Origin: Parvibaculum sp.
GTDB lineage: Bacteria; Pseudomonadota; Alphaproteobacteria; Parvibaculales; Parvibaculaceae
Direction of reading: 5' to 3'
Length of the DNA stretch: 64,000 nucleotides
NCBI RefSeq assembly: GCF_035325945.1
Contig: NZ_DAOKYX010000002.1
Coordinates: 13,757-77,756 of the forward strand
Below are positions 30,297 to 37,472 of this stretch, one piece after another; within the stretch, counting starts at the first letter, position 1, and each line of letters begins with the position of its first letter. The notes below the pieces were generated by a model. It was not told the origin of the DNA. It made no database searches and saw only the letters and a list, made by a program, of their open reading frames with translations. Position numbers and translations under genes: made by a program.

Positions 30297-31247
30297 TCAG
30301 GGTTTGAAGCCGGGCGGCACCGGCGGCGCTTCGCGCAGCAGAACGATGGAGAGGCGCCGGTTCGCCGCCATGCGCGGGTCCTCGGGGAAGAGCGGCTCGG
30401 AATCGGCCTTGCCGACAACCTGATAGATGCGGTCGTCCGGAAGCCCCAGCGAGCCGATGATGCGGCGGGCTGCGTTGGCGCGGTCGGCGGTCAGTTCCCA
30501 GTTTGTATATCCGGCCGTGCCCCTGAGGGGCGCGGAATCCGTGTGCCCTGAAATGCTGACGCGGTTCGGCAGCTTCATCAGCACCCTGGCCACCGCCTCG
30601 ATGAGGTGGCGCGTGCGCTCATAAGGTTCGGCGCGGCCGGAGGGGAACATGGAGCGGCCGTCCTGATCGACGATCTGGATGCGCAGCCCCTCGGGCGTTT
30701 CGTCGATGATGACATTCTTCGAGAGTTCGGCGAGTTCGGGGCTGTTCTGCATCGCCTGTCGCAGGCTTTCAGCGGCGCTGCGGAAGTTCTGATCGTCCTG
30801 CGAAATGGCTCCGATGGCGGTCGCGTTCGTCGCGGCCGATGTCATCGTCGCCTTCGCGGCGTTTGTCGATTCGCGATTGCCATTGGAGGCGGCCGCGGTG
30901 CGCTGGTCGTTCGTCTCCGGGCTCTTCGGCGCGGCCGGCGTCGAGATCGTCATGACGACGCGCGGCGTGGTCCCCGGCATGCGCGAGCCCTGCGAATCGA
31001 AGGCGGTGCCTCCCATCACGCCGCCCGAGCCGCTCGTCGAGCGGCTGACATTGGCCGGCGCGAAGTAATCGGCCAGTCCCTGCTTCTGCTCCGGCGTCGT
31101 CATGCTGATGAGCCACATGAGCAGGAAGAAGGCCATCATGGCGGTCACGAAGTCGGCATAGGCGATCTTCCAGGCGCCGCCGTGATGGGCGTGGACGACC
31201 TTCTTCACCTTCTTGAGGATGATCGGGCGTTCGTTGGACGTGGCCAT
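30297..31247 (-). CDS. motB: MotB-type stator protein (OmpA-like C-terminal domain)
   Basis: HHGGAWKIAYADFVTAMMAFFLLMW (TM segment with the conserved Asp). C-terminal peptidoglycan-binding domain ISGHTDS...NWELTADRANAARR...NRRLSIVLL. Confidence 0.88.
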   Translation of the reverse strand: MATSNERPIILKKVKKVVHAHHGGAWKIAYADFVTAMMAFFLLMWLISMTTPEQKQGLADYFAPANVSRSTSGSGGVMGGTAFDSQGSRMPGTTPRVVMTISTPAAPKSPETNDQRTAAASNGNRESTNAAKATMTSAATNATAIGAISQDDQNFRSAAESLRQAMQNSPELAELSKNVIIDETPEGLRIQIVDQDGRSMFPSGRAEPYERTRHLIEAVARVLMKLPNRVSISGHTDSAPLRGTAGYTNWELTADRANAARRIIGSLGLPDDRIYQVVGKADSEPLFPEDPRMAANRRLSIVLLREAPPVPPGFKP

Positions 31248-31268
31248 GCTCGACCCTCCGTTGCGACG

Positions 31269-32135
31269 TCAGGCTGCGGCGGGCTGAAGGTTTGCGGTGG
31301 ATTGCTCCACTTCCGCGAATGTCGGGCGCACCTCGGACATGAGCGCCTTGCGGGCGAATTCGATCGAAACGGCGGGCGCGTAGCCGGCCATATGCGCAAG
31401 GAGGCCCGCCTTCATCGACAGGTAATATTTGGACTCGGCTTCGTAGATGTTGCGCAGCGACTGGGCCATGGGGCCGAAGAAGCCATAGGCGCAGAAGACG
31501 CCGAGAAAGGTTCCCACAAGGGCGCCGCCGATGAGGTGGCCCAGCACTTCCGGCGGCTGGTCGATCGAGCCCATGGTCTTGATGACGCCGAGCACGGCGG
31601 CGACGATGCCGAGGGCCGGCGTGCCGTCGGCGAGCGCCTGAATGCTGGCGACGATCCGCTCGCGCTCCTGATGGTGCGTTTCCAGCTCTTCATCCATCAG
31701 CGCTTCGAGTTCATGGGCGTTTTCGGTGCCCATGGTGATCATGCGCAGGTAGTCGCACATGAATTCGACGGCGTGGTGATCGGCGGAGAAGTTCGGGAAC
31801 TGCTGGAAAATTGAAGATTCGGAAGGGTTCTCGACATGTGCCTCGAGGGCGAGGTTGCCCTTGCTCTTGGCGAGCTTGAAGAGGGTGAACTGGAGGCCGA
31901 GAAGTTCCAGATAGGCCGCCTTGTCGTAGCGGGGCCCGCGAAAGAGGGTCTTGAAGGTGCTGCCGATCTTCTTCAGCACGGCGGGCGGATTGCCGATGAC
32001 ATAGGCGCCGACGGCCGATCCCAGGATGATCAGGGCCTCAAATGGCTGAAACAGCACGGCAAGATGGGCGCCCATGGCGGCATAGCCACCGAAAACGCTC
32101 AGCAAAACCACGAGAGTGCCGACGATCAGGCGCAT
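31269..32135 (-). CDS. motA: MotA-type stator protein
   Basis: 288 aa with N-terminus MRLIVGTLVVLLSVFGGYAAMG. C-terminal channel helices ...PALGIVAAVLGVIKTMG...HLIGGALVGTFLGVF. Lies 21 nt upstream of motB. Confidence 0.88.
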   Translation of the reverse strand: MRLIVGTLVVLLSVFGGYAAMGAHLAVLFQPFEALIILGSAVGAYVIGNPPAVLKKIGSTFKTLFRGPRYDKAAYLELLGLQFTLFKLAKSKGNLALEAHVENPSESSIFQQFPNFSADHHAVEFMCDYLRMITMGTENAHELEALMDEELETHHQERERIVASIQALADGTPALGIVAAVLGVIKTMGSIDQPPEVLGHLIGGALVGTFLGVFCAYGFFGPMAQSLRNIYEAESKYYLSMKAGLLAHMAGYAPAVSIEFARKALMSEVRPTFAEVEQSTANLQPAAA

Positions 32136-32362: not shown

Positions 32363-32854
32363 ATGACCCACGACACCCGTAAATTTCGTAACGCCCTTGG
32401 CTGCTTCACCACGGGCGTGGCCGTCGTCACCACGCAGGTCGAGGGCAAGGAGCCGATCGGGGTCACGATCAACTCGTTCGCGTCGGTCTCGCTCGAGCCG
32501 CCGCTCGTGCTCTGGAGCCTGGACAAGAAGTCGGACACGCTGCCGGTCTTCAATGCGGCCAAGGCTTTCACGATCAATATCCTGCGCGAGGACCACAGGG
32601 AGCTGTCCTCCCGCCTGGCGCGTCAGGGCGACCACAGCCTAGCGGGCCTGCCCGTGCGCCCCGGTGCCAGCAATGGCTGCCCGGCGCTCGAAGACGCGCT
32701 CGCCCATTTCGAATGCGAGGTCGAGGCGCGGCATGAAGCGGGCGATCACATCATCATGATCGGCCGCGTGCTCCACTTCGAATATTCCGAGGACGGACGG
32801 CCGCTGCTCTATCATCGCGGCAGCTACAGGGGACTTGCCGAGGGCAATCCCTAA
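32363..32854 (+). CDS. Flavin reductase-like domain protein
   Basis: From ATG 32363: FRNALGCFTTGVAVVTT...SFASVSLEPPLVLWS...LLYHRGSY. Its stop overlaps the convergent MarR stop. Confidence 0.88.
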   Translation: MTHDTRKFRNALGCFTTGVAVVTTQVEGKEPIGVTINSFASVSLEPPLVLWSLDKKSDTLPVFNAAKAFTINILREDHRELSSRLARQGDHSLAGLPVRPGASNGCPALEDALAHFECEVEARHEAGDHIIMIGRVLHFEYSEDGRPLLYHRGSYRGLAEGNP

Positions 32855-33375
32855 ACCGGCCCGGCCTGTCCGGCGGCCGCCCTCAGGCGGTCCTCTTCCT
32901 CGACCGACAGCAGATTGGCGCGCATCAGCGTCAGACATTCCAGCATCGCCAGATAATCGGCTTCGCGGATGCCGTCGATCGAGGCGTTGTGAATATCCGC
33001 GTAATGCGCCATGCCGCGATGCTTGTGGGCGTGGAGGAGTTCGGTCAGGTAGATGCATTTGGCGCGCTTGTCGCGCGGATGCGACCGCCGCTCGACGAGC
33101 CCCAGCGCTTCAAGTTCGCTCACATAGATCCCGATCGAGACCTTGTGTATCTGAAGCTCGTTCGCAAGCTCCGTCTGCGTGCGCCCGTCATGCTGGAGGA
33201 GCGCGGTGATGATGCGTGTCTGGTTGCGGGTGAGGCCGCTGCGCCGGTCATAGACGGTGGCGAGAAGCGTGCCGACTTCGGTGATGAGGTTCAGGAAATA
33301 TTGCGGCGAGAAACGTTCGTCGGGCGCTTCGCGTTCGACAGCCTTCGCTGCACCTGCCTGTTTCGCCTTCGCCAT
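32851..33375 (-). CDS. MarR family transcriptional regulator
   Basis: From ATG 33373-33375. Winged-helix region GLTRNQTRIITALLQHDGRTQTELANELQIHKVSIGIYVSELEALGLVERR. Confidence 0.88.
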   Translation of the reverse strand: MAKAKQAGAAKAVEREAPDERFSPQYFLNLITEVGTLLATVYDRRSGLTRNQTRIITALLQHDGRTQTELANELQIHKVSIGIYVSELEALGLVERRSHPRDKRAKCIYLTELLHAHKHRGMAHYADIHNASIDGIREADYLAMLECLTLMRANLLSVEEEDRLRAAAGQAGPV

Positions 33376-33470
33376 GTGATCCCCCTCAGACGACGCACAC
33401 GCGGCGACACGATGTGTCATTCCTTCAAATTTGGCCGCGAATGCCGACTTGACGCCTGCCAGCCCGGATG

Positions 33471-33497: not shown

Positions 33498-33563
33498 GCG
33501 CCCGGCGGTCATTGAAATTCGCATCGGCCGGGAATGTATACGCCATTCGGGGAGAATCGGGAG

Positions 33564-34322
33564 ATGGCAGAAGATTCGGCGGTTCAGGCCGTGGCCAATG
33601 CGGCCGGTGCGGCGCAGACGGCGGGCGATGCGATCGCGCAGGCTGCCGCGGCGGGCGCGGCAGAGCCCTGGTATGCGCTTGGGCCCCTGATCGACAAGGG
33701 CGGCCCCATCGTCGCCCTGCTGCTGGTCCTCTCGGTCATTTCGGCGGCGATCATTCTCCTCAAGGTCTTTCAATACTGGAGCGCCGGCCTTTCGAGGCGC
33801 GGCTTCATCGAGCCCGCGGTCGAGCGCATCGAGGCGGGCGATCCGGAAGGCGCGCTCAAGGTGCTCGGCAAGCATCGCACGCCGGTTGCGCGCGCCATGG
33901 CGGCGGGCATTCGCGCCAAGGTGCGCGGCGACTTGCGCGACGAGGACGTCGCCGCCGAGATCCAGCGCGTCGGCGCGGTCGAACTCGGCGCGCTGCAAAG
34001 CTATTTCCGCTGGCTCGAAGTCATCGGCAACATCTCGCCGCTGCTCGGCCTGCTCGGCACCGTCATCGGCATGATCCAGGCCTTCCAGAAGCTCGAACTG
34101 GGCGGCAGCAATGTCGATCCGGCGCAGCTTTCCGGCGGCATCTGGACGGCGCTGCTGACGACGGCCGTCGGCCTCGTCGTCGCGCTTCCCGCCGTGACCG
34201 CGCTCAATCTCTTCGAGGGGCGGGTCGATCAGGTGCGTCTCGTCATGCGCGATGCGTCCGCGCGTGTGATCGCCGGACTTCATGCGCGCCAGAGCGGCGT
34301 GCGCTCGAAAGCCGCCGAGTAG
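33564..34322 (+). CDS. exbB: MotA/TolQ/ExbB proton-channel family protein
   Basis: LEVIGNISPLLGLLGTVIGMIQAF...GGIWTALLTTAVGLVVALPA. ATG 33564 has GGGGAGAA upstream. The longest ORF starts at ATG 33534. Confidence 0.9.
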   Translation: MAEDSAVQAVANAAGAAQTAGDAIAQAAAAGAAEPWYALGPLIDKGGPIVALLLVLSVISAAIILLKVFQYWSAGLSRRGFIEPAVERIEAGDPEGALKVLGKHRTPVARAMAAGIRAKVRGDLRDEDVAAEIQRVGAVELGALQSYFRWLEVIGNISPLLGLLGTVIGMIQAFQKLELGGSNVDPAQLSGGIWTALLTTAVGLVVALPAVTALNLFEGRVDQVRLVMRDASARVIAGLHARQSGVRSKAAE

Positions 34323-34343: not shown

Positions 34344-34751
34344 ATGTTCGACGAGCCCATCAGGCGACGGCGCGTTTTCAGCCTCACACCGTTGATCGAC
34401 GTCGTTTTTCAGCTCCTGATCTTCTTCATGCTGTCGGTGACGTTCCTGCAGACGCAGACGCTCACCGTCTCGACGCCCGCGCAGAGCAGCGGCGCCGCGC
34501 CGCTTGATGCGAATGTCGTCGAGATCTGGCTCTATGCCGATGGCGCGATCAGGGTCGCGGAAAAACCCGTCGCGCCCGCGGGGCTCAATGAGGCTGTCAG
34601 GAGCGCCATTGGCGGGCGGGGCGACATGACGGTTTCGATCCTCGCGCAGCGCGGCGCGCGCACACAGGCGCTTGTCAGCGCGATCGAGGCGGCGCGGCTT
34701 GGCGGGGCGAAGGATGTCGGCACCGCGCGGGTGGAGAATTTCACGCCATGA
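34344..34751 (+). CDS. exbD: ExbD/TolR family protein (Asp-containing paralogue)
   Basis: 135 aa. TM segment FSLTPLIDVVFQLLIFFML with the conserved Asp (gac 34398-34400). Confidence 0.9.
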   Translation: MFDEPIRRRRVFSLTPLIDVVFQLLIFFMLSVTFLQTQTLTVSTPAQSSGAAPLDANVVEIWLYADGAIRVAEKPVAPAGLNEAVRSAIGGRGDMTVSILAQRGARTQALVSAIEAARLGGAKDVGTARVENFTP

Positions 34752-35152
34752 TCGAGTTCGACGAACCGCTGCCGCGCCGGCCCTATGAATCGATCGTGCC
34801 GCTCATCAATGTCGTCTTCCTGCTGCTCATTTTCTTCCTGCTCGCAGGCACGATGGGGCCTTCCGAAACGGTCAAGGTGAACCTGCCCGTGGGCACGCTC
34901 GACGACAAGAACAAGCGCCAGCCCGCCATGATCTATATGGAGCAGGACGGCTTCATGTGGCTCGGCAAGACATTCGTCGCGCCGGAAGCGGCAGGCTTCA
35001 TGGTCAGGGACTTCATCCGGGACGCGGGAACGGACCGCGTCGCCGTGAAGGTCGATGAGGCGGCGCCCGCCGATGCGCTGCTTACGCTGATGGAGGTTTT
35101 GCGGATCGCGGATGTGAAGGAAGTCACCATTCTCACGGAGCGCGCGCGGTGA
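34748..35152 (+). CDS. exbD: ExbD/TolR family protein (Asn variant at the conserved Asp position)
   Basis: 134 aa. TM segment SIVPLINVVFLLLIFFLL (aat 34808-34810). ATGA overlap with the upstream exbD. Confidence 0.88.
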   Translation: MIEFDEPLPRRPYESIVPLINVVFLLLIFFLLAGTMGPSETVKVNLPVGTLDDKNKRQPAMIYMEQDGFMWLGKTFVAPEAAGFMVRDFIRDAGTDRVAVKVDEAAPADALLTLMEVLRIADVKEVTILTERAR

Positions 35153-36009
35153 GCATGGCCCTCGACAGCGCCTCGTTCGATGAGCCGGCCGTGCGGACGC
35201 CGCGTCTGTGGCTCTTCATCGCGGTTTCGATCGCGATTCATCTCGCGCTCTTCCTGTTCGGCCTCGTCAGTGGCGGTATTTTCGGCGGGCCGGGACCGGG
35301 CGGCGGCGACGCGGTGACGTTCCGTCTGGCGGCGGGCGGCGGGCATGATCGTTTCGCCGCGCCGGTATCCGGCCATGCGAAGCCAACGCCGCGGCCGAAG
35401 CGCGTCGAAAAGCCGAAACCCAAACCCGAGCCGAAACCGGAAACGGTGGTTCGCAAGAAGCAGGGCGAGGCGCCGAAGCCGCTCGTGGCGGAGCCCGAAG
35501 AGCAAGCCGAGGCGAGCGCGGAAGAGGCAGGCGCGGCCGGCGGCGGCCTTCCCGGCGGGCAAGGTCAGGGCGCGGGCGGCGATGCGGAGGAAACCATCCT
35601 CAACCGCAAGGGGACGTTGCTCTCGGGCGGCGAGATCACCTCGCGGATGGGCGGGCGCACCTTCCATCTCGAAATGGGCCGCATCGACGTCGAAGGCGGT
35701 AACAGGCTCATCAACACTGTGATCGCCCTCAACCCCGATGGCACATCGGAAGTCACCCTCACGCGCTATTTCTACCAGACCTATCACTCGCAATATTCAT
35801 CGACGAGAAGCGCCACCGGCACGGGGCGCTGGTGGATCGAGGGCAATCGCTGGTGCCACCAGTCGAGCATCATCAATTACGGCACCAAGGACTGCTACAA
35901 CATCACCGTCGATGGCCCGACCGTGCGCCTCTATTACGCGCGCTGCAACCTCGAATCCTCTCAACTCTGCAAGACGGGCCGCATCGCGGGCGAGGGCAAC
36001 GTCAAATAA
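35149..36009 (+). CDS. TonB-like anchored protein with non-canonical C-terminal domain
   Basis: GTGA overlap with exbD2. TM helix carrying S-x3-H (VSIAIHLALF). Pro/Lys rod PTPRPKRVEKPKPKPEPKPE, then a Gly-rich linker. The C-terminal ~135 aa is unrecognised and has 4 Cys. Coding-type GC3 throughout. Confidence 0.8.
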   Translation: MSMALDSASFDEPAVRTPRLWLFIAVSIAIHLALFLFGLVSGGIFGGPGPGGGDAVTFRLAAGGGHDRFAAPVSGHAKPTPRPKRVEKPKPKPEPKPETVVRKKQGEAPKPLVAEPEEQAEASAEEAGAAGGGLPGGQGQGAGGDAEETILNRKGTLLSGGEITSRMGGRTFHLEMGRIDVEGGNRLINTVIALNPDGTSEVTLTRYFYQTYHSQYSSTRSATGTGRWWIEGNRWCHQSSIINYGTKDCYNITVDGPTVRLYYARCNLESSQLCKTGRIAGEGNVK

Positions 36010-37042: not shown

Positions 37043-37472
37043 TCAGAAGTTTGCCGCCAGAGTGAGGAAGGGTCCGTGGATGAAATAGTCGGACTTGCCG
37101 ACATTCATGCCGTAGCCGTTGTTATCCGTGATGGCGACATTGACCGACGACCAGTACTGGAACTGATAGCCGAGAACGAGCTTCGTATTCCCGACAACGT
37201 TCACCGAGGCTTGCGTCCCGGTCGCTCCAGCGATAGCCGGCCAGTGCCTGGCCGAGCCAGCCGTCGCCGGGCGCGGTTCGGGCGGTTTCATGGGGCACGG
37301 CCGGTCCGAACAGCTGCCAGTCCTTCGGCATTGCATCGACGAGGTAGGAGCCCGTCAGCGAGATGAAATAGCCGGATGCGGGTGTCTGATCTTCAGTGCT
37401 TGCACTCGCGATTCCGATGCAGCTCACCATCGCCACGATCGATGCCGAAGCCAATAGCCATGCCTTGTTCAC
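37043..37472 (-). pseudogene. Small outer-membrane beta-barrel-type protein with a 1-nt frame break near 37205-37225
   Basis: The 5' part (frame of 37122..37472) has signal peptide MNKAWLLASASIVAMVSCIGIASA and good GC3. The 3' part (frame of 37043..37336) reads ...NTKLVLGYQFQYWSSVNVAITDNNGYGMNVGKSDYFIHGPFLTLAANF with a terminal Phe. Each frame loses coding-type GC3 beyond the junction. Confidence 0.55.

Follow-up and report, generated by a model that had tools for sequence, protein, structure and literature searches.

To our knowledge, motors of the Ton and Tol types are the known routes by which inner-membrane energy reaches the outer envelope of Gram-negative bacteria, and the output heads described for them so far are few: the TonB C-terminal domain (TonB_C), domain III of TolA (TolA-III) and, lately, a predicted von Willebrand A (vWA) domain. 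Proteins of the last kind have TonB/TolA-like anchors, their genes follow one tolQ-like and two heterologous tolR-like genes, and they have been proposed as a new class of force transducers (Williams-Jones et al., 2025, Mol Biol Evol; PMC12204202). Described here is a locus at which such an anchor carries another head. It lies in a stretch of 64,000 nucleotides (nt) from Parvibaculum sp. (contig NZ_DAOKYX010000002.1 of assembly GCF_035325945.1), which was analysed over its full length and is termed the window. The gene in question, termed the target gene, follows exbB and two exbD genes, and its product joins a TonB-type transmembrane (TM) anchor and a long linker to a C-terminal head of a different kind. 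The reading preferred here, to which a probability of about 0.6 is assigned, is that the product is a motor-coupled transducer that spans the periplasm and combines a TonB chassis with a head foreign to TonB. Coordinates of the features are collected in Table 1.

The position of the gene is best understood by comparison with related operons. Relatives of the second ExbD, which has an Asn in place of the TM aspartate, occur outside the Parvibaculaceae, and three of their contexts were used for the comparison, those of Afifella sp. JA880, Poseidonocella sp. HB161398 and a third genome (L074-L076). All three operons consist of exbB, exbD(Asp) and exbD(Asn), followed by a gene for a canonical TonB with both PF03544 and PF13103. 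The tonB start overlaps the stop codon of exbD2 (GTGA or ATGA), as does the start of the target open reading frame (ORF), and the TonB proteins have a His in the TM helix that is invariant and, past the helix, a strand rich in Gly (GAGGDATVSLQGA; GVGGMEVAFGTAGG). The window ORF therefore stands where these operons have their tonB, in the tonB slot, and has a swapped head. The architecture of the operon points to a replacement of the TonB head on the lineage of the Parvibaculaceae.

The target ORF is a real, conserved gene under selection, as is evident from its codon composition, from 84 homologue clusters and from Cys residues that are invariant among them. In the window the junction with exbD2 reads CGG TGA / GTG AGC ATG (CGGTGAGCATG), and an in-frame ATG at 35155, two codons further on, is a second possible start. 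The overlap amounts to 4 nt, and one of the same length is found between exbD1 and exbD2 (34748-34751). Several of these features had been pointed out in an earlier note made from the letters of the window alone, here called the original prediction, and they hold. The GTG at 35149 does overlap the exbD2 stop, and the ORF is the fourth cistron of exbB-exbD-exbD, the three preceding genes matching PF01618 and PF02472. The G+C fraction is 0.81 at third codon positions (GC3) vs 0.53 at second positions (GC2), in keeping with the claimed third-position bias. The four C-terminal Cys (positions 236, 249, 266 and 274) are invariant in the 84-sequence alignment. The single TM helix with S-x3-H, half of the SHLS signature of TonB, the TonB-like rod and the Gly-rich linker are likewise present; the helix falls at residues 20-42 in the AlphaFold2 model, with S27 and H31 forming the motif, and the rod and linker are at residues 79-98 and 127-144. 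A contig of a Parvibaculum sp. metagenome-assembled genome (MAG) is almost the same as the window, with 97-99% amino acid (aa) identity over the operon.

The head was compared with known domains at the sequence level and then as a predicted structure. Neither the whole protein nor residues 142-286 gave a Pfam match at E<=10, TonB_C (PF03544) and PF13103 included, and the head has no NCBIfam match at the same threshold. A profile of the head retrieved 0 matches at E<=10 from the sequences of the PDB, and the target ORF was not matched by a hidden Markov model (HMM) that represents the C-terminal domains of the operon-homologous TonBs. The statement of the original prediction that the last ~135 aa are without TonB C-terminal features thus agrees with the searches, in which TonB_C, TonB_2 and TolA models gave no match at E<=10. 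In addition, no vWA Pfam match is found in the target protein, and the predicted head is mainly beta.

In the full-length AlphaFold2 model, computed with 84 sequences, the predicted local distance difference test (pLDDT) values of the head are mostly >90, and a domain-only model shows the same fold with a predicted template-modelling score of 0.77. Structure prediction and a Foldseek search had been proposed as checks in the original prediction; they gave one helix with eight strands and no TonB-type fold among the matches listed. With both the full-length and the domain-only models, Foldseek returned nothing from the PDB at E<=1e-3, and the matches listed include no TonB/TonB_C or TolA/TolA-III structure. 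Lipocalins (retinol-binding protein, 1hbp/1qab, and others) rank highest, with E values of at least 0.02 and domain-normalised template-modelling scores of 0.40-0.45. Others are the periplasmic domain of the bile-sensing protein ToxS (8u2f; probability 0.98, target-normalised score 0.52) and a Neisseria meningitidis protein (2lfu). It should be noted that the weak lipocalin-like matches are interspersed with spurious matches to coronavirus spike N-terminal domains. One weak sequence match of the head profile bears Pfam Lipocalin_4/DUF5640. For the head itself there is no lipocalin match in Pfam; no model of Pfam or NCBIfam corresponds to its four-Cys pattern or its WWIEGNRWCH motif, and searches of the literature gave no report on it. 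Judged from the models, the head is not TonB_C or TolA-III, and it is predicted to be a lipocalin-like up-and-down beta domain; membership of the lipocalins is not claimed.

An exhaustive profile search gave 50 representative clusters at E<=1e-3. The distant homologues of the head (profile E 1e-15 to 1e-6) fall into two kinds. Those of the first kind are anchored, 273-410 aa long and built like the window protein, for example from Zavarzinia and from alphaproteobacterial MAGs. The four-Cys head is found in all of them, S-x3-H is found in the TM helix in 21 of 21, and the linker is Pro-rich or acidic in the 12 whose linkers were read. Those of the second kind are secreted-like, ~155-185 aa in length, and begin with a hydrophobic segment that resembles a signal peptide, e.g., in Oleomonas cavernae. 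The homologue from this species (P0095; L008 6001-6492) has the UniRef label "DUF995 domain-containing protein", which was not reproduced: neither this protein nor the window head has a Pfam match at E<=10, DUF995 (PF06191) included, and a profile of the secreted homologues retrieved its own members alone, with no link to DUF995 or to other families. Literature searches found nothing on DUF995, to which the head may be distantly linked. Pfam and NCBIfam scans of 18 distant relatives also gave nothing for the head. Because the head is also found as free secreted proteins, it appears to be a periplasmic binding module in its own right, which the TonB chassis acquired. The invariant Cys pairs, together with the secreted homologues, fit a periplasmic binding domain with putative disulfide bonds, and two disulfides, expected between C236 and C249 and between C266 and C274, probably stabilise the head.

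The N-terminal part of the protein, by its motifs, is a putative motor-docking module of the TonB/TolA type. H31 in the TM helix is nearly invariant in the family alignment. The full SHLS motif is S-x3-H-x6-L-x3-S, and in the cryo-electron microscopy structure of TonB-ExbBD the Ser16 and His20 of TonB touch Ser34 and Trp38 of ExbB (PMC12215075). Beyond the helix a near-invariant segment, GGIFGxPGPGGGD, precedes the strand V56-T-F-R-L-A-A62. TonB has in the comparable region its D-box, 45-ISVTMVT-51, a strand of alternating hydrophobic and hydrophilic residues that is captured by the ExbD dimer (PMC10907165, PMC12215075). The V56-A62 strand starts 13 residues past the TM helix, a spacing equal to that of the E. 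coli TonB D-box, and it fits the hydrophobic/hydrophilic pattern, but its flanks are Gly, not Pro; it is a candidate for an ExbD-binding strand. The Gly-rich segment and the D-box-like strand (residues 42-63) were absent from the feature list of the original prediction. The linker of ~100 residues (43-149) is predicted to be disordered, with pLDDT <55 over residues 49-132. The family profile matches both E. coli TonB (9ddo_F, E 3.8e-4) and TolA (E 0.003) over their N-terminal ~120 residues, and weak NCBIfam matches, which cover the anchor and linker alone, are to TolA (tolA_full, E 0.003, N-terminal part) and TonB.

A link between the post-TM strand and the motor genes is seen in 59 Parvibaculaceae loci, which were obtained from a scan of species-representative genomes. 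In 48 of them exbB-exbD-exbD is found directly upstream of the gene. The strand was followed with the pattern [TRQIK]F[QRE]L[AS]AG, which occurs in 47 of these 48 copies behind exbD2, the remaining copy having IVFQLAAG. The pattern occurs in none of the 11 copies that lack exbBD, and it is also absent from two tandem second copies. The copies without exbBD carry instead a D-box-like strand of a more classical type, LVDITIFPxPKP, or the diverged sequences MKYQRAAG, AAYRIAMG and ALEVTLVHG; at one of these loci (L071) there is only a fragment of 68 aa. As for the tandem second copies, that of L014 (7470-8420; 316 aa) keeps S-x3-H and has a diverged post-TM strand, AAYRLAMG, and that of L039 (8531-9220; 229 aa) has a TM helix without the His and is without the Pro-rich rod.

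In a neighbour-joining tree of the head, the loci without exbBD are scattered over four to five positions between lineages that carry exbBD, and exbBD is present in the deepest branches. It is therefore unlikely that the absence of exbBD is the ancestral state. The family is seen only in genomes labelled Alphaproteobacteria, apart from one protein of a MAG labelled Kangiella sp., a gammaproteobacterium. This protein (P0062) is identical over the first 125 residues compared to the L061 protein of a Parvibaculaceae chromosome, and thus the Kangiella-labelled MAG is probably mis-binned.

The motor genes themselves have a distinctive pair of ExbD proteins. The proton-binding TM residue is Asp in ExbD1, and Asn takes its place in ExbD2, in all 48 of the Parvibaculaceae operons, and Asn is found in all 120 database relatives of ExbD2, in a search that was biased by its word index. 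The Asp/Asn pair is also present in the three canonical exbB-exbD-exbD-tonB operons, which belong to other Alphaproteobacteria; literature searches found no mention of such pairs. By its sequence, the pair implies a putative motor whose central pair has one conserved TM aspartate. In the window ExbB, the pore Thr motifs (GTVIG and TTAVG), the Pro of TM3 and a Ser of TM1 (S67) align with what we take to be the sequences of E. coli ExbB and TolQ. The protein scores marginally higher on the TolQ model than on the ExbB model of NCBIfam, both scores being far under the cutoff.

Several observations weigh against a motor-coupled transducer. The TM1 Trp that contacts His20 of TonB (Trp38 of ExbB and Trp32 of TolQ in the presumed E. 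coli sequences) corresponds to A71 of the window ExbB (33744-33746), and across the window-type ExbB subfamily this Trp is replaced by Ala, Leu or Val. The second half of SHLS is out of register in the target protein, where L39 is at His+8 and S41 at His+10, and not at His+7 and His+11; this Leu/Ser half is poorly conserved among TonBs (PMC12215075). The match to TonB in the PDB draws partly on the compositionally biased linker. When the N-termini of the family were aligned by hhalign with those of the three operon-homologous TonBs, the result was not significant (E 0.027, probability 1.8%), and thus homology of the N-terminal part is not claimed beyond the motifs and the operon position. About a fifth of the positional orthologues (11 of 59) are without adjacent exbBD at the marR-X-dehydrogenase syntenic site, which rejects the idea that the gene is always linked to motor genes. 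Nor is exbBD adjacent in any of the three contexts read for distant TM-anchored relatives. Together these cases show that adjacency to exbBD is not obligatory; in E. coli, tonB is likewise unlinked to exbBD. Some of the copies without exbBD are of a paralogous subtype, which may also occur as a tandem second copy, as in L014, and thus part of the correlation between motif and operon may stem from paralogy, not loss. Finally, the search for a further canonical TonB, in which a TonB C-terminal HMM was run against six-frame translations and found none, covers the window and ~16 kb of each Parvibaculaceae locus, a small part of the genome.

The steps by which a motor-coupled transducer would operate can be set out as follows. 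The four genes would be co-expressed, as the observed 4-nt overlaps suggest. An ExbB pentamer around the ExbD1/ExbD2 pair would conduct protons, by homology to the E. coli 5:2 motor, and the ExbD1 Asp and the ExbB pore Thr residues give a basis for this in the sequence. The TM helix would dock on the motor via the face that holds Ser27 and His31. The strand V56-A62 would be captured by the periplasmic dimer of ExbD, like the TonB D-box; the motif being lost wherever exbBD is absent argues for this step. The Pro/Lys/Gly-rich linker of ~100 residues would then span the periplasm, and the motor would pull on the head, which may bind a partner or ligand other than the TonB box. Since the receptor-binding head is replaced by an unrelated domain, the motor probably pulls on something other than the usual receptors, and the target of the window protein is probably not a TonB box or the usual outer-membrane nutrient receptor.

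Receptor genes bear on a different explanation, namely that the protein is the working TonB of the Parvibaculaceae bacteria, whose replaced head still energises, through a novel interface, ordinary TonB-dependent receptors encoded elsewhere. The gene does fill the tonB slot, which holds a canonical TonB in operons of this type elsewhere, and no second TonB was seen within the search range just given. In Ca. Phaeomarinobacter ectocarpi, placed near Parvibaculum, a BtuB-type receptor has been reported (PMC4110880), so that TonB function is probably needed in the group. However, this explanation is unlikely. The head has no likeness to TonB_C in sequence or in predicted structure, and its free secreted versions could not transmit force. 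Most Alphaproteobacteria have several TonB paralogues. No TonB-dependent receptor is present in the 64-kb window, as judged from a scan of all ORFs that have at least 550 aa and a plausible coding signal, and none within 6-8 kb on either side of the gene in the annotated neighbourhoods, nor do receptor genes adjoin the three distant anchored relatives whose context was read. The regulator next to the operon is of the MarR type, and no iron-uptake gene is found beside the operon in the annotated neighbourhoods. The absence of a receptor from the 64 kb had been stated in the original prediction, which also called for a survey of neighbourhood conservation; in the annotated neighbourhoods no orthologue sits beside a TonB-dependent receptor. 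Its proposal of an ExbBD-energised transducer is supported by the tonB slot, the S-x3-H anchor with the D-box-like strand and the motif-exbBD link; the proposed energisation and the proposed target outside the TonB-dependent receptors are plausible.

The nearest structural matches of the head, all of them ligand-binding barrels (retinol-binding protein, lipocalins and the ToxS periplasmic domain), could instead point to a membrane-tethered periplasmic ligand binder or sensor with a lipocalin-like pocket, in which no force is transmitted, the anchor is a mere tether and the linkage to exbBD is historical. Free secreted homologues, and the many family members encoded without adjacent motor genes, agree with such a protein. 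For a passive tether, however, it would be unexpected that the TM His and the strand are nearly invariant beside exbBD and that the strand motif is absent elsewhere. S-x3-H is kept in all 21 distant anchored relatives. Translational coupling to exbD2 is suggested by the overlap of the start codon with the exbD2 stop, and a Pro-rich linker of ~100 residues is unnecessary if a sensor stays at the inner membrane. A tethered binder is thus improbable. A TolA-like tether for envelope integrity, rather than a Ton-type protein, is very improbable: the weak tolA_full match (E 0.003, N-terminal part only) and the slightly higher score of ExbB on the TolQ model (both models far under cutoff) would favour it, but no tolB, pal or ybgC is found in the operon or its neighbourhoods, TolA domain III is absent, and the homologous operons end in TonB_C proteins.

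The motor-coupled transducer may be taken a step further, at somewhat less than even odds. The family could represent a further class of transducers driven by the proton-motive force, in which the TonB chassis ends in a lipocalin-like head with disulfide bonds and has a motor of its own, ExbB-ExbD(Asp)/ExbD(Asn). Such a protein would act on a partner other than a TonB-dependent receptor, or in force-driven loading or release of a ligand held in the barrel. If this is true, the same mode of action would apply to the S-x3-H-anchored relatives that bear this head in other Alphaproteobacteria. The apparent head swap lies inside an otherwise conserved Ton operon, and the canonical version in related bacteria is available for comparison. 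Lineages without the motor genes are also without the docking motif, and this provides a defined system for the study of motor targets and of the residues that couple transducer and ExbD. The Asp/Asn pair in turn raises the question of how a 5:2 motor works with a TM aspartate on one of its two central subunits.

Table 1. Features of the exb operon and its fourth gene (nt positions are those of the window; residues are those of the encoded protein)
Feature	Position (nt)	Strand	Evidence
MarR-family regulator, divergent from exbB	32851..33420	-	PF12802 (E 4.8e-14), PF01047
ExbB/TolQ-type proton-channel subunit, long N-terminal extension	33534..34322	+	PF01618, E 1.5e-29
ExbD paralogue 1, conserved TM aspartate D19 (nt 34398-34400)	34344..34751	+	PF02472, E 8.7e-18
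ExbD paralogue 2, Asn N21 (nt 34808-34810) replacing the TM aspartate	34748..35152	+	PF02472, E 6.6e-17
Target gene, putative TonB-slot transducer with non-TonB head, 286 aa	35149..36009	+	ORF, homologues, invariant Cys, GC3
TM helix, residues 20-42, S27-x3-H31 (first half of SHLS)	35206..35274	+	AlphaFold2, pLDDT ~90
Post-TM module, residues 42-63: Gly-rich GGIFGGPGPGGGD, then D-box-like strand A55-VTFRLAA-G63	35272..35337	+	near-invariant in family
Pro/Lys/Glu rod PTPRPKRVEKPKPKPEPKPE, residues 79-98	35383..35442	+	sequence
Gly-rich hinge AGAAGGGLPGGQGQGAGG, residues 127-144	35527..35580	+	sequence; G141 and G144 nearly invariant
C-terminal head, residues 150-286, one helix and eight antiparallel strands (predicted), four invariant Cys, WWIEGNRWCH motif	35596..36006	+	AlphaFold2

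The marR gene is found at this place in the majority of the 59 Parvibaculaceae loci, loci without exbBD among them, and by this position its product is a candidate regulator of the exbB-exbD-exbD-target operon. The marR-exbB intergenic region yielded neither an inverted repeat that could serve as a MarR operator nor a sigma-70-like promoter, and the operon itself yielded no convincing terminator. On the opposite strand, ~1.4 kb upstream, there is a MotA/MotB stator pair (30297-32135, minus strand; MotA_N with MotA_ExbB, and MotB_plug with OmpA), which holds the same position in most related loci. Downstream, between a dehydrogenase gene and an ornithine-decarboxylase-like gene, two overlapping ORFs are found in different frames (37043-37472, minus strand). 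One begins with a sequence that resembles a signal peptide, MNKAWLLASASIVAMVSCIGIASAS, and the other ends in ...FLTLAANF, which resembles the C-terminus of an outer-membrane protein. Neither has a Pfam match; by these sequence features they could be a frameshifted gene for a small outer-membrane protein. In the marine clade, a gene of the penicillin amidase family (PF01804) is convergent with the transducer gene and lies directly behind it (L001 8916-11321, L006 8967-11378 and L012 5597-7978); it is not present at the corresponding site of the window.

Among known systems, the canonical TonB encoded as the fourth gene of the homologous operons shares with the window protein the gene order, the Asp/Asn ExbD pair and the 4-nt overlap with exbD2, as well as one TM helix with an invariant His, a Gly-rich segment with a short strand, and a long Pro-rich linker. 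It ends, however, in TonB_C/TonB_2, whereas the window protein ends in an unrelated four-Cys head of 137 residues. Canonical TonB in general also has S-x3-H in a single TM helix and a Pro-rich linker, and is either encoded with ExbB/ExbD or dependent on them in function; unlike the window protein, it has the full SHLS motif and a TonB_C domain (PF03544/PF13103). HasB of Serratia and FusB of Pectobacterium are dedicated TonB-type proteins that serve one system beside the housekeeping TonB. These are TonB paralogues or homologues and are reported to act on outer-membrane receptors or their substrates, whereas the window protein is without a TonB_C head and without a linked receptor.

TolA is similar to the window protein in its S-x3-H anchor, in a D-box-like strand past the TM helix and in a long region that spans the periplasm; the window protein differs in being without the tol-pal context (tolB, pal), without domain III and without the helical domain II. 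Lipocalin/calycin barrels consist, like the predicted head, of an N-terminal helix followed by eight up-and-down antiparallel strands, but the head gives no match to lipocalins at E<=1e-3, has template-modelling scores of 0.40-0.45 and lacks a lipocalin Pfam match.

The vWA class is the closest in concept. Its members resemble the window protein in the TM helix, which is TonB/TolA-like and holds the SHLS His, in a motor box, in a disordered linker and in a globular head that is neither TonB nor TolA, and their genes, like the target gene, are downstream of one tolQ-like and two heterologous tolR-like genes (PMC12204202). They differ in the head and in distribution: the vWA class has a von Willebrand A head and is found in several phyla, whereas the window protein has a small, four-Cys head that is predicted to be beta-barrel-like and is found in Alphaproteobacteria-labelled genomes only. 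Thus the concept of a non-TonB head on a TonB/TolA-like anchor is already known (PMC12204202), and the window locus is a case with a different head and a clear derivation from a Ton operon.

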